A stretch of DNA of 64,000 nucleotides, from positions 40,975,572-41,039,571 of the forward strand of contig CP154954.1 in assembly GCA_039621445.1 (NCBI GenBank), written 5' to 3'. Positions 52,396 through 55,126 of this stretch are shown here, piece by piece. The position numbers and the translations under genes were made by a program. The notes under the pieces were generated by a model, which worked only from the letters and a program-made list of their open reading frames with translations, was not told the origin of the DNA and did not search any database. Numbering within the stretch: position 1 is the stretch's first letter; every line of letters begins with the position of its first letter. Source of the stretch: Euglena gracilis. Lineage: Eukaryota.

Positions 52396-55126
52396 CTTAG
52401 GCGGCCTAACTCGCACTTAAGGTTTTGATTTTTAGCTTGCGCTTTGGCGCAAATTTTCGATTTCTTTGAGACCCGGCGGTAGAACCCACCCTTTTGACCC
52501 TCTGGTTCCGCGGAGACCCTCCACGGTGGCGTGTGCATCATTTGCCGATGTTGGAACCCGGGGAACAGGCCCAATTTTGGTGTTTTTTGGCCTGTGCACC
52601 ATTTTGAAAAAGGTCCAAAACCCTGGGTTTGACCGCCGGGACACGTGAATTTTCCCAAAAATGGGCCAAAACCCCCGTTGTGAGTCCCTCGTTTTTGAAG
52701 CCTTGGCTGTGTTCCCCGGATGGTGTCACACAGTCCAGGTGTAATGAAGCCCTTTTTGTTGCTTTTTTGGCTCTGTGATATGTCCGTGAAGAGTTTGGCT
52801 GCTGAGGCATCCAGAGGGTGGACTCTACATGCACGTTGTGAAAAGTTGGAAAAACGGCATGTCACAGAGTTGTGATCCCTGGGTGCTTGAAGCGTGAGGA
52901 GCGGTGCAGCGGGAACCACCCTGGTGGGGGGGGTTGGGGGGGACTGAGGGCAAGCCTAGGGACCTCTCCCAACGTCTGGTGAGCAACGCCAGGCCCCACA
53001 CTGCCGGGCACAGAAGGCAATGTTTATGGACATTTGCGCTTAAGCGCAAATTTTTAGCTTGCGCTTAAGCGCAAATTAAAAATTTGCGCTTAAGCGCAAG
53101 TTAAAACAGAAGCCGCTGAGTTTGTGGGAGTCCCTCTGATGTGTTACGGTGTGTCGGGGGCCCCTCTCTGAACGGCCAGAGTGCGGGCTTGATGAGGAAA
53201 TACCTTGCGCCGAAGCGCAAACCATCATACAAAAAACTGAGAAGTGCAAACACGCGGCTGACGTGTAATGTGGATGAACAAGCAGTGCATTATGTAGGCA
53301 TGTCCCTTGCGCTTCGGCGCAAATGTATTTCCTCACCAAGCCCGCACTCTGGCCATGCAGAGAGGGGCCCCCGACACACCGTAACACATCAGAGGGACTC
53401 CCACAAACTCAGCGGCTTCTGTTTTAACTTGCGCTTAAGCGCAAATTTTTAATTTGCGCTTAAGCGCAAGCTAAAAATTTGCGCTTAAGCGCAAATGTCC
53501 TTTTAAATGGCAGATGTATTTGAATGCATTCGTGCTGTGTGAGAAGGTGGGGGATAGGGGAGAATGGTGAGGAGGGTTTGTGCGCTGCTGTGCCAGAAGC
53601 TGGGTTGGTGCTTTTGAACTATTCAGGTGCTGGGGAGGAAGTGGTTGTTACAATAAGACGAATGGTGGGCGGTAGGCTGTGGTGCCTCAGTGACCTTGCA
53701 CTCGGTGCACAAAGTGGGGTTTTTGGGGATGTTGACAGAAAGGCTTTTTCTGCTGAACAATGCCTCCATCTGCCTGGTGGCATGTGGCTGTCTGGTGGGT
53801 TGCAAAATACCGAAAAAAGGCGTGTCAGCATGTCTTCCCTTCTCCGCCGTTGTTGATGGGCCCTTTCAATTTCTCAATTCCATTCGCTCATCCCCAAAGT
53901 TCTGTGCTTCAAATCCTGGGCGAGGAAAGGGGGGTGACGAGCTTCTTTAAAACACCCTTTCGACGCCTAAAACTGTTTCCTCGGCTGTGGTTCCCAGGGT
54001 TTATCTGGTACCTGTTCTTTTCCAAACAGAATTTTTCCGACTTTTAAAAGTCGGCCAAAGAGAAGGGCCCCTCAGGCACGCTTAACTGCGAGGCAAGTGG
54101 GAGGAACCTCCGGCACTGGAAGTTGGGTTTACAACGCATAGGACAAGACACGTCTGGCTATCAAGAAGTTGGTGGTTGTTTTCACAGACCAGGGGGTTGG
54201 CTTCCTGTCCCAGGCAAGGCTTCCCTCCATCTGAGCTCTGTCCGCTCTGGTGATGAGATGCTCCCAGGACTGCTCTCTCCACCCGCAGTGATAAAAATGG
54301 AAAATACAACTTGATGGCTGTTGCGCCATAGCGCAATGGGTAGGCTCATGAAGAATGGAAATTTAAGAGTTATACTGCGCCAAAGCGCAAGTAGAAATAC
54401 ACTTTTAAAATTGTCAAAGCAACGTGGCTCTTGCGCCGACGCGCAATGTTGACCAGTTTTAAGTCAACGTGACTGAGAGTAGGCTTCCGTCCCCCTGTTC
54501 TACATTTTTGTGCTCCATCCCCTCTGGTGTTGTTACTCTACCAGGGCCGTTCTCTCACTCCGTTGTGAGATAAGTTTTAAACAGTTATATTTGCGCTTCG
54601 GCGCAAGCCATGCTGCTTTTGCAATTTTAAAAATTGTATTTCTATTTGCGCTTTGGCGCAAGGTAACTCGTAAATTTTCATTCTTCATGAGCCTGCCCCT
54701 TGCGCTTTGGCGCAAATGGAAACACATGTTGACTCAAAAATTGTTATCATTGTTCAAATGCGGCAATGGTCACCCACGTGTTGAATTACAAAAAAGTCAA
54801 AAATTTGCGCCAAAGCGCAAATGGTTTTATTTTTTGTAATTTCAAAAATTTGCGCCAAAGCGCAAATGAGTAAGCGGAATACCCTCGTTTCATCACCCGC
54901 CGCTTTGTGTTCATGCACACTGGGACCCGGGAGCGCTGTGCCCGTGGACCGTGGAGTTCCTAGTCGTTGCTTTCGTCACCGGGCCCTGGGGTGCAGGGAG
55001 ACACTATTTTCAGACTGTCTCGAGTCTCAGGCCACGGTGGTCGAAAACCAAACTTTTTTTGGGATTTGCGCGTCGGCGCAAATTTACAGTCACTTTCAAA
55101 GCTAAGTGCGAGTTAGGCCGCCTAAG
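52396..55126. mobile_element. CTTAGG-type TIR element, 2731 bp, with an empty-site paralog in the window
   Basis: Perfect 24-bp TIR cttaggcggcctaactcgcactta; TSD CAGAT at 52391-52395 and 55127-55131; empty site cccgaCAGATatttagggt at ~60392-60410; many TTGCGC-N4-GCGCAA motifs. Confidence 0.97.
53028..53500. repeat. Long inverted repeat (~193-bp arms, ~86-bp spacer)
   Basis: 53028-53220 is the near-perfect reverse complement of 53307-53500. Confidence 0.95.

Follow-up and report, generated by a model that had tools for sequence, protein, structure and literature searches.

Transposons with CTTAGG ends in Euglena gracilis carry palindromes whose arms vary by subfamily and may be sites for an element-encoded DNA-binding protein

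Why would a transposon in which no recognisable gene was found carry one short palindrome, with arms held exactly 4 nt apart, 17 times over? The question arises from a 64,000-nucleotide stretch of Euglena gracilis DNA (hereafter, the window), in which a sequence-only reading had pointed to elements beginning with CTTAGG, each with its own variant of an N4-spaced palindrome, and had likened them to plasmid partition groups. We followed up four such elements, E0-E3, whose features are collected in Table 1.

E1, E2, and E3 are real cut-and-paste-type transposons with terminal inverted repeats (TIRs) that make 5-bp target site duplications (TSDs). The CTTAGG... TIRs are 21-24 bp long across the elements and match end to end at 24/24 bases in E3, 22/24 in E1, and 20/24 in E2, and a perfect 5-bp TSD is present at each of the three intact copies. 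The CTTAGG hexamer is not enriched in the window (10 found vs 21.4 expected), and 7 of the 10 occurrences are element ends. E3 inserted recently; its empty site is present in the window, and the flanks of the insertion (52120-52398 and 55127-55426) share 99-100% identity with the uninterrupted copy (60126-60404 and 60397-60696). A family with CTTAGG TIRs was not found described in the literature on such transposons or on palindrome elements with 5-bp TSDs, and CTTAGG is absent from the supplements of PMC12477816.

Table 1. Coordinates of the CTTAGG-TIR elements and their features in the window
Feature	Position	Strand	Description
E0	9326..10610	+	old, right-truncated or decayed copy, E3 subfamily; left TIR CTTAGGCGGTCGACTTCGCACTTA
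E0 decayed sites	9367, 10231, 10529, 10560, 10595		TTGCGC type
E1	14409..17005	.	non-autonomous element; 2597 bp; TIR CTTAGGCGGCGC(T/G)AATTGCCCAA
E1 TSD	14404-14408 / 17006-17010		TAAGA
E1 perfect sites (9)	14463, 14883, 14975, 15155, 15187, 15214, 16546, 16670, 16848		GCGG-N4-CCGC
E1 decayed site	16584
E2	18540..25393	.	gene-carrying element; 6854 bp; TIR CTTAGGAGGC..AAACTGCCCA
E2 TSD	18535-18539 / 25394-25398		TAATT
E2 gene	19821..23125	-	7 exons; CDS 1944 nt, 647 codons + stop
E2 exons	23125-23032, 22804-22667, 22489-22128, 21950-21291, 20916-20686, 20472-20104, 19910-19821	-
E2 sites 1-8 of 15	18591, 19007, 19333, 20029, 20540, 21237, 21985, 22864		GAAGCGG type; 20029 with shorter spacer
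E2 sites 9-15 of 15	23405, 23731, 23976, 24296, 24617, 25011, 25236		GAAGCGG type
E3	52396..55126	.	non-autonomous CTTAGG-TIR transposon; 2731 bp; 24-bp perfect TIRs and 5-bp TSD
E3 TSD, left copy	52391..52395	.	CAGAT
E3 TSD, right copy	55127..55131	.	CAGAT
E3 left TIR	52396..52419	+	CTTAGGCGGCCTAACTCGCACTTA
E3 right TIR	55103..55126	-	complementary to left TIR at 24/24
E3 palindrome 1	52437..52452		TTGCGC-TTTG-GCGCAA; start 41 bp from left end
E3 inverted repeat A	53017..53511		arms 53017-53206 and 53322-53511; 190 nt, 95%
Repeat A palindromes	53034, 53059, 53084 / 53429, 53454, 53479		3 per arm, 25-bp pitch
Repeat A inner-arm-edge palindromes	53205, 53307		one per arm
E3 inverted repeat B	54321..54715		arms 54321-54446 and 54591-54715; about 86%
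Repeat B palindromes	54321, 54375, 54431 / 54591, 54646, 54700		3 per arm; 54375 with 1 mismatch
E3 palindrome pair	54805, 54850		both TTGCGC-CAAA-GCGCAA; span 54805..54865
E3 last palindrome	55066..55081		TTGCGC-GTCG-GCGCAA; end 45 bp from right end
Empty site for E3	60397..60401	.	single CAGAT in uninterrupted paralogous flank copy

No recognisable coding content was found in E1, E3, or E0 by Pfam on the scanned ORFs or by tblastn for the E2 gene. The two E3 ORFs of at least 120 aa that were scanned, one of which (52230-52955, minus strand) overlaps the left boundary, have no Pfam match, and a tblastn search of the window with the E2 exons and all retrieved homologues as queries revealed no second copy of the E2 gene and no remnant of it in E0, E1, or E3. 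Pfam scanning of 131 of the 177 window ORFs of at least 120 aa, together with 62 E2 ORFs of at least 60 aa, returned neither a transposase-type match nor a ParA-type ATPase. In the window, none of the alternative genetic codes opens long frames, and there are no tRNA or Rfam matches. A search of the genome contig collection with the TIR pattern gave 0 matches, a search of genome contigs for related loci gave 67 pattern matches with 0 confirmed, and E3 matched no plasmid sequence in blastn.

The sequence-only reading had reported TTGCGC-N4-GCGCAA many times in E3, and the count bears this out: there are 17 perfect copies, each at a coordinate that it had listed (52437 to 55066) and all within 52437-55081, compared with an average of 0.00 when the 64-kb window is shuffled 100 times with its dinucleotides preserved. 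An 18th site, at 54375, carries one mismatch. Every forward TTGCGC hexamer in E3 has a GCGCAA partner at exactly 4 nt (17/17), and the arm density is 12.8 per kb within E3 vs 0.47 per kb outside. The spacers take nine different 4-nt sequences, and the arms are perfect in 17 of the 18 sites. E3 also has two internal inverted repeats with palindromes in their arms. In repeat A, 9 of 190 arm positions differ and none of these lies within a palindrome arm; in repeat B, 1 of 36 palindrome-arm bases differs, as against 15 of 79 columns elsewhere (p=0.02, Fisher test). This sparing of the arm bases points to selection for, or maintenance of, the sites. In the old copy E0, all five listed sites are degenerate, and by our own count from the site sequences four of the five show a CpG-to-TpG/CpA change, which suggests that sites decay when an element is inactive.

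The other two intact elements carry related palindromes built on a GCGG core. E1 has nine perfect GCGG-N4-CCGC sites, within 1 bp of the positions previously given, and their flanks are conserved although sometimes non-complementary (TTRN...GYAA). Across the window, this core occurs 35 times vs 1.35 expected, with 9 in E1, 8 in E2, 15 in unrelated tandem arrays (57.0-57.3 kb and 59.7-59.9 kb), and 3 scattered; because 15 of the 35 matches lie in such arrays, the 4-bp core by itself is not exclusive to CTTAGG elements. Other families of palindromic repeats also abound in the window. The longer GAAGCGG-N4-CCGCTTC, which had been assigned to E2, is indeed the motif of that element: 14 matches at no more than two mismatches (6 perfect) were found vs 0.31 expected, and all 14 are inside E2. 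The innermost pair is broken identically in five E2 sites, so that the E2 motif can be read in a second way, as GAAGCG-N6-CGCTTC, which fits as well as the N4 form.

Taken together, E1, E2, and E3 have 10-18 copies each of a palindrome with one arm sequence and a fixed inner spacer of free sequence. The earlier claim of a shared geometry with family-specific arms thus holds, with three variants in which the inner spacer is fixed and the arms are different. The motif type was also expected to track the TIR subfamily, and within E0-E3 it does. At no more than one mismatch, the TTGCGC type occurs only in E3 (18) and E0 (3) and the GAAGCGG type only in E2 (13). E0 and E3, which have the TTGCGC type in common, match at 20/24 TIR bases, and E1 and E2, which have the GCGG core in common, match at 18-19/24, whereas only 13-16/24 bases match across the two groups.

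E2 is the one element of the four that carries a candidate gene for a binder, and the number of protein-site co-variation comparisons is therefore zero. The reading frame of this gene is intact across its seven exons, and all of its introns are GT-AG and 177-374 nt long, with a GC content of 0.37-0.46 vs 0.61-0.72 in the exons. The sites avoid coding sequence: none of the 15 falls within the exons, which total 1944 bp (chance 0.007), and five of the six introns have exactly one. A search with exon 4 gave 28 homologues (E<=1e-3), the diverged ones (22-43% identity) stop at the same exon boundary, and none was found among longer proteins. None of the 28 reaches a curated Pfam cut-off, ESM Atlas gave no usable match for exon 4, and the Foldseek search with the exon-4 model returned 0 matches at E<=1e-3, with weak Alba and MT-A70-like resemblances only. 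We rejected a methyltransferase assignment for this domain (Foldseek E about 0.02, TM about 0.26, no Pfam match); the E2 copy is also without the (D/E)P[WYF]PP stretch of its homologues. No oxygenase family was detected in the E2 exons or the 28 homologues, and no such fold is among the Foldseek matches of the exon-4 model. A complex prediction for two exon-4 copies scored 0.00 with controls absent and weighs neither way. For exon 3, the sole homologue in a near-length search is a copy at 94% identity (P0032), and tblastn against phages gave no match.

The N-terminus of the E2 protein looks ParB-like, both by eye and from a language-model lead. Exon 3 encodes GKWVILSGQHRYLAASAIA (SGQHRYLAA), which we take to resemble the GxxR motif of ParB/Srx proteins, and in the ESM Atlas 7 of 30 feature matches fall in clusters with some ParB_N members, with scores around 0.9; ParB_N proteins make up 19% of the members of the best such cluster. 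Searches of Pfam, NCBIfam, PHROGs, and PDB sequences gave no ParB match to the E2 exon pieces, which were searched separately, the putative domain being divided by an intron. The AF2 fold of exon 3 (pLDDT 44.8) is unusable. The proposal that these elements encode ParB-like proteins is thus tentative for E2, with the look of the sequence and the Atlas lead in its favor and the negative searches of the exon pieces against it. It does not extend to E1, E3, and E0, which encode nothing recognisable, so that a ParB-like protein of its own for each element is not seen here.

What, then, are the palindromes for? We give a probability of roughly one half to the reading that they are multi-copy putative sites of a sequence-specific, two-fold-symmetric (dimeric) DNA-binding protein encoded by the family, with one variant per TIR subfamily. 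The constancy of the arms within an element while the spacers vary, together with the invariable 4-nt pairing in E3, argues for something sequence-specific and not merely structural, as do the E1 sites, which have only a 4-bp complementary core, conserved and often non-complementary flanks, and weak hairpins. In E3, the arm centers are about one helical turn apart (6+4 bp), a spacing that would suit a dimer bound to a single helix face. On the other side, gene conversion instead of selection could underlie arm conservation within one element, and a genome-wide tendency to make palindromes may be at work, given the GCGG cores in unrelated arrays and the other palindromic repeats. The binder may be the 647-aa protein of E2-type elements or a cognate encoded by master copies of the other subfamilies, and gene-less E1 and E3 would each depend on a cognate of their own, supplied in trans. 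Binding would tag an element along its full length as "self" for some function at the level of the element. Among the candidate functions, we rank first one that protects from silencing chromatin or CpG methylation, or modifies them (VANC-like or PAG3-like, see below), and second one that bridges the two ends or assembles them for transposition.

The same sites could be bound by the transposase of the family as extra internal recognition copies, in the manner of the many subterminal motifs of Ac/Ds or Hermes, the E2 gene being an unrelated passenger, which we regard as unlikely. Such an arrangement fits the position of the first site, 41-54 bp from the left end in 4/4 elements, and that of the last E3 site, which ends 45 bp from the right end, as well as the resemblance of the E1 half-site TTA(N)GCGG to the TIR tip CTTAGGCGG and the retention of arrays in gene-less E1 and E3. 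However, the sites are not subterminal only and run through the non-coding body of the elements, including introns 2-3 kb from either end, and the E2 and E3 arms are unlike their own TIRs. The TIR tips are nearly identical between subfamilies (CTTAGG[C/A]GG), whereas the palindrome arms differ, which suggests two recognition systems. Still less probable, in our judgment, is a role as DNA hairpins or cruciforms, or as RNA hairpins in transcripts, that, with no dedicated sequence-specific protein, might prime replication or repair, help to process transcripts, or give rise to small RNAs. The E3 and E2 units do form stable single-strand hairpins with 4-nt loops (-7.1 to -11.5 kcal/mol, z -2.7 to -7.4), loops such as TTCG and CGAA are present, and several sites lie in introns of the transcribed-looking E2 gene. 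Yet the stems keep one sequence per element and show no co-variation or compensatory change, loops occur in both orientations with respect to the strand of the E2 gene, gene-less elements carry sites equally, and the six E3 sites with spacer TTAA are perfect 16-bp palindromes in which a loop is absent. The E1 stems are 4 bp long and weak (-3.8 and -4.5 kcal/mol), with 29/200 and 7/200 shuffles folding as well or better, and the outer E1 positions are conserved despite being mismatched.

We find it very unlikely that the element gains nothing from the palindromes, that is, that they are targets of a host factor for silencing or methylation, or have arisen neutrally by concerted evolution in a genome prone to palindromes. 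The arms are CpG-rich, decayed copies show CpG transitions, and other palindromic repeat families lie in the window, all of which would be in keeping with such an origin. Against this, the recently inserted E3 retains 17 of 18 sites in perfect form, an element would be expected to shed sites for a host repressor and not to multiply them, and subfamily-specific arms, one site per intron, and avoidance of exons are difficult to obtain neutrally. Two further candidates were set aside: excision footprints are ruled out by the recurrence of one sequence 17 times, and tiny nested elements by the lack of flanking duplications by eye.

Sites for a family-encoded binder, the reading that we prefer, can be set beside several known systems. 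In the ParB-parS systems of bacterial chromosomes and plasmids, short inverted-repeat sites occur in several copies in cis to a ParB-type gene, and site specificity diverges into incompatibility groups. Multi-copy palindromic sites in cis and diverged site specificity among related systems are the likeness. The elements here, in contrast, are eukaryotic transposons, the scanned ORFs gave no ParA partner, profile search did not detect ParB_N, and the sites, each with 4 bp of free spacer sequence, are spread over kilobases, introns included. The plasmid-partition analogy drawn in the sequence-only reading thus carries over in site geometry only. We consider it doubtful that ParB/parS-like self-recognition is split here into specificity groups, such that the ParB-like protein of each subfamily would be confined in its loading to the N4-spaced palindromes of that subfamily, scattered through the element with one per intron, and gene-less copies would be protected or mobilized only by a cognate master, as in plasmid incompatibility groups. 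Transposon accessory proteins are better analogues. In En/Spm and Ac/Ds, an element-encoded protein recognizes many copies of a short motif (12-bp TnpA motifs and subterminal hexamers, respectively), and non-autonomous copies keep them. Hermes has subterminal repeats that form the same class of binding-site arrays (PMC10368747). The motifs of these three systems are known from within a few hundred bp of the element ends; those here also occupy the interior and the introns.

Two systems come closer. The anti-silencing protein VANC21, of a system in which binding leads to loss of DNA methylation, is reported to bind a family-specific 9-bp motif that is dense in VANDAL21 of Arabidopsis, both in the introns and in intergenic and terminal non-coding sequence (PMC5735166). 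The likeness lies in a short motif that is concentrated in the non-coding sequence of the element and seldom found outside it, in motifs that differ between related families, and in an element-encoded binder (here a candidate) with arrays that evolve by tandem duplication. Unlike the sites here, which have two-fold symmetry and a fixed spacer, the VANC21 motif YAGTATTAY lacks symmetry and is arrayed in a single direction; VANC has no sequence relationship with the E2 protein, for which no Pfam family was found; and the superfamily appears to differ, VANDAL elements being described as Mutator-like and the TSDs here being 5 bp. Red-algal Plavaka elements (EnSpm/CACTA) carry PAG3, a protein with a ParB-like N-terminus whose gene adjoins tandem inverted-repeat arrays and which its authors propose to bind and modify its own transposon, according to the preprint (bioRxiv 10.1101/2025.02.11.637652). 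As in E2, with its 15 sites and putative ParB-like N-terminus, a eukaryotic DNA transposon there combines such an accessory gene and inverted-repeat arrays in one element. PAG3 fuses its ParB-like domain to a 2OG-dependent oxygenase, which was not detected in E2, and Plavaka elements are giant (17-19 kb), whereas those here span 2.6-6.9 kb and have CTTAGG TIRs and 5-bp TSDs. The sites here are dispersed single units (one per intron) as well as tandem, and the window brings three subfamily variants together. An Ectocarpus Sola1 element likewise has an accessory gene of the ParB-like plus DNA-methyltransferase type (PMC12477816). Since red-algal transposons with ParB-like proteins and inverted repeats and the VANC/VANDAL system are already in print, the arrangement here varies a known theme.

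If the reading of a family-encoded binder is true, this locus would be a natural experiment, with three sister subfamilies that have different sites, a recent copy and its empty site, a decayed copy, and a candidate binder gene. It would permit a direct test of how a transposon distinguishes its own copies from those of relatives, and of whether ParB-like accessory proteins, recently proposed for algal transposons, read the inverted repeats of their own elements. Orthogonal protein-site pairs of this kind could serve as targeting tools in eukaryotic chromatin.

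Seven of the CTTAGG matches are transposon ends, and the hexamer itself is not enriched in the window (10 found vs 21.4 expected). The ends delimit three intact elements with terminal inverted repeats (TIRs), namely the gene-carrying E2 and the non-autonomous E1 and E3 (see the table), together with E0, a decayed or right-truncated copy of the E3 subfamily whose left end lies at 9326 and for which no recognisable partner end was found. Insertion of E3 is directly proven by its empty paralogous site: the flanks at 52120-52398 and 55127-55426 recur uninterrupted at 60126-60696, with 99-100% identity and a single CAGAT, and the insertion is therefore younger than the local duplication. 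This duplication (52120-57000 vs 60126-62260) covers ~2.1 kb at 96-100% identity, and E3 interrupts the first copy only. Beyond the TIR tips the elements have nothing in common, and their internal repeats are exclusively palindromes and palindrome-holding blocks.

Intact CTTAGG elements and the exons of the E2 gene model
Feature	Coordinates	Strand	Matching end bases	Perfect 5-bp direct repeat
E1	14409-17005		22/24	TAAGA
E2	18540-25393		20/24	TAATT
E3	52396-55126		24/24	CAGAT
E2 exon 1	23125-23032	minus
E2 exon 2	22804-22667	minus
E2 exon 3	22489-22128	minus
E2 exon 4	21950-21291	minus
E2 exon 5	20916-20686	minus
E2 exon 6	20472-20104	minus
E2 exon 7	19910-19821	minus

The sequence-only reading had assigned each element its own variant of a palindrome with a 4-nt spacer (N4). 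TTGCGC-N4-GCGCAA occurs as 17 perfect copies in the window, all within 52437-55081 and at the positions that reading had listed, where 0.00 are expected (mean of 100 dinucleotide-preserving shuffles); a single mismatch admits an 18th, at 54375. Inside E3, GCGCAA stands exactly 4 nt after 17/17 forward TTGCGC hexamers, and arm density is 12.8 per kb vs 0.47 per kb elsewhere. The assignments of GCGG-N4-CCGC to E1 (9 copies) and of GAAGCGG-N4-CCGCTTC to E2 (14 matches with up to 2 mismatches, 6 of them perfect, all inside the element, vs 0.31 expected) were likewise borne out. At ≤1 mismatch, the TTGCGC type is confined to E3 (n = 18) and its decayed relative E0 (n = 3), and the GAAGCGG type to E2 (n = 13). 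Exclusivity thus holds for the long motifs but not for the 4-bp GCGG core, which also occurs outside CTTAGG elements: GCGG-N4-CCGC was found 35 times in the window vs 1.35 expected, with 9 copies in E1, 8 in E2, 15 in tandem arrays at 57.0-57.3 and 59.7-59.9 kb, and 3 scattered. One array of long palindromes each lies at 57020-57300 and 59660-59950 (GGTTGGGCCGCGG-YCGR-CCGCGGCCCAACC, 13-bp arms, 4-nt spacer, GCGG/CCGC core). These two arrays flank three 649-bp units with (TTAGGG)n (57840-59500), and the whole block, without CTTAGG ends, sits exactly between both copies of the local duplication.

Palindrome type tracks TIR subfamily in the window. E0 and E3 have 20/24 TIR bases and the TTGCGC type in common, E1 and E2 have 18-19/24 bases and the GCGG core in common, and 13-16/24 bases match between the two groups. 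The E0 palindromes are decayed, with a CpG-to-TpG/CpA change in four of the five listed sites, consistent with methylated, inactive DNA that no longer keeps its sites. The same change is seen in one E1 site, at 16584; together, the changes in E0 (9326-10610) and at 16584 suggest CpG methylation of inactive copies.

All four elements have their first palindrome 41-54 bp inside the left end; in E3 this distance is 41 bp, and the final site stops 45 bp short of the right end. A 190-nt inverted repeat of E3 holds eight sites: each arm has three with a 25-bp period and a further one at its inner edge. A second (inverted repeat B, 54321-54715) holds six, and there are also sites at 54805 and 54850. 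Arm sequence is constant within an element and the 4-nt spacer is variable; E3 uses nine spacer sequences, and in E1 and E2 the spacers are A/T-rich. Five E2 sites have the innermost pair broken alike (GAAGCGG-AAAA-ACGCTTC and its mirror form), and GAAGCG-N6-CGCTTC therefore describes E2 equally well. The complementary core of the E1 sites is just 4 bp, with conserved, often non-complementary flanks (TTRN-GCGG...CCGC-GYAA). The palindrome arms are maintained, as judged from the diverged inverted repeat B, where differences fall in 1/36 arm positions vs 15/79 other columns (p = 0.02).

The GC-rich minus-strand blocks of E2 assemble into a seven-exon gene model with a CDS of 1944 nt (647 codons, one terminal stop), six of six introns GT-AG and 177-374 nt long, and a GC content of 0.61-0.72 in exons vs 0.37-0.46 in introns. 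None of the 15 E2 sites falls inside an exon (chance 0.007); five of the six introns contain exactly one, and the remaining ten sites occupy the non-coding flanks, spaced roughly 225-540 bp. No remnants of this gene were found in E0, E1, or E3, nor any Pfam family among their scanned ORFs of at least 120 aa.

We take exon 2 ('QVRRPRQEHVNDLITELKNNPPQELVLTVWPER') and exon 3 ('GKWVILSGQHRYLAASAIA') to resemble a ParB/sulfiredoxin N-terminal domain with a GxxR helix. Exon 3 (one relative, P0032, 94% identical; model pLDDT 44.8, too low for use) gave an ESM Atlas lead with scores of 0.89-0.93, in which 7/30 matches fall in clusters with some ParB_N members; in the best of these, 19% of members carry ParB_N, and other clusters carry DUF6551. 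Searches against Pfam, NCBIfam, PHROGs, and PDB sequences returned nothing for the separate exon pieces; intron 2 splits the candidate ParB-like domain. A search of 1.84 billion representatives with exon 4 (220 aa) returned 28 homologues at E ≤ 1e-3, one 99% identical and the other aligned ones 22-66% identical; no Pfam match of these 28 reached its curated cut-off. Most aligned homologues are short predicted fragments stopping at the end position of exon 4, as exon-wise gene calls on eukaryotic DNA would give. The exon-4 AF2 model, built from the homologue alignment (mean pLDDT 67; C-terminal half 83-92), had no Foldseek match in the PDB at E ≤ 1e-3; it weakly resembles Alba (probability 0.95-0.98, TM about 0.52 on target) and MT-A70/beta-class methyltransferases (E about 0.02, TM about 0.26). 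In the alignment (A1), most homologues conserve (D/E)P[WYF]PP following a W-x-W motif; the E2 copy and its nearest relatives have an 11-residue gap in its place.

The window looks eukaryotic in character and gene-poor. It contains no tRNA or Rfam match, no long ORF under any stop-codon scheme, long (CA)n runs, and interstitial (TTAGGG)n arrays, with a CpG observed/expected ratio of 0.68. The sole Pfam match among the scanned ORFs of the window, an adenylate/guanylate cyclase catalytic domain (39 aa, E 6e-5, 12558-12974, plus strand), is presumably one exon; no other trace of a host gene was recognisable in the 64 kb. A palindromic 19-bp unit (CCATCATGACCCATGATGG) is repeated about 25 times in tandem at 40261-40721, followed by 163-bp repeats and GC-rich microsatellite-like arrays up to 41740. 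Repeats at 28585-28884, 32433-32519, and 33397-33695 combine C10G10-like poly-C/poly-G palindromes with AGTGACTGACTGGTTTTT units, and 7887-8230 and 45331-45751 share a repeat that contains CCCCCCCCAAAATAAGA units and a segment of 187 bp at 80% identity.

Since site type follows TIR subfamily and the arms are constant, we read the palindromes as sites of a subfamily-specific element protein, most likely arrays for a putative DNA-binding protein encoded by the elements. Constant, strictly paired arms, a spacer fixed in length but free in sequence, and the conserved unpaired E1 flanks are together the signature of a two-fold-symmetric binder, whose half-sites would lie about one helical turn apart. 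The same features speak against purely structural hairpins: predicted single-strand folding is good for E2 and E3 units (-7.1 to -11.5 kcal/mol) but poor for E1 units (-3.8 and -4.5 kcal/mol, with 29/200 and 7/200 shuffles at least as good). The candidate binder is the E2 protein, which may serve gene-less copies in trans. The sites span the entire element, introns included, and not only its ends, and we therefore rank first a whole-element role for such a binder, which could be control of chromatin or methylation, or loading and bridging of the ParB kind; pure transpososome assembly would come second. The diverging protein-site specificity proposed from sequence is partly supported, insofar as site type tracks TIR subfamily; a ParB-like protein of its own was not seen in each element, the gene being found in E2 only and its separate exon pieces matching no ParB profile.

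Two recent algal papers already present the same idea of ParB-like accessory genes in transposons. Giant Plavaka transposons of the red alga Bostrychia contain PAG3, which joins an N-terminal ParB-like domain to a 2OG oxygenase; tandem inverted-repeat arrays adjoin PAG3, which the authors propose binds and modifies its own transposon, and Plavaka accessory genes have been transferred into other transposon families (bioRxiv 10.1101/2025.02.11.637652). An Ectocarpus Sola1 element carries a ParB-like and DNA-methyltransferase gene (PMC12477816), and an older review describes, from chlorophytes and chytrids, ParB-type HTH domains fused to Dam-type methylases (PMC4738411). The Arabidopsis protein VANC21 causes loss of methylation and binds a family-specific motif that is dense in VANDAL21, both in its introns and in its intergenic and terminal non-coding parts; targets of related VANCs differ (PMC5735166). 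Unlike in these systems, the carrier here is small and of unassigned superfamily, with CTTAGG TIRs and 5-bp target-site duplications, the second part of the E2 protein is without a known family, and the sites are symmetric with a fixed spacer, dispersed one per intron, and present in three variants side by side. A literature search, with Repbase outside its scope, found no description of this CTTAGG-TIR family. Tentatively, and at roughly one chance in four, these elements may represent ParB/parS-like self-recognition in a eukaryotic transposon family, split into specificity groups.
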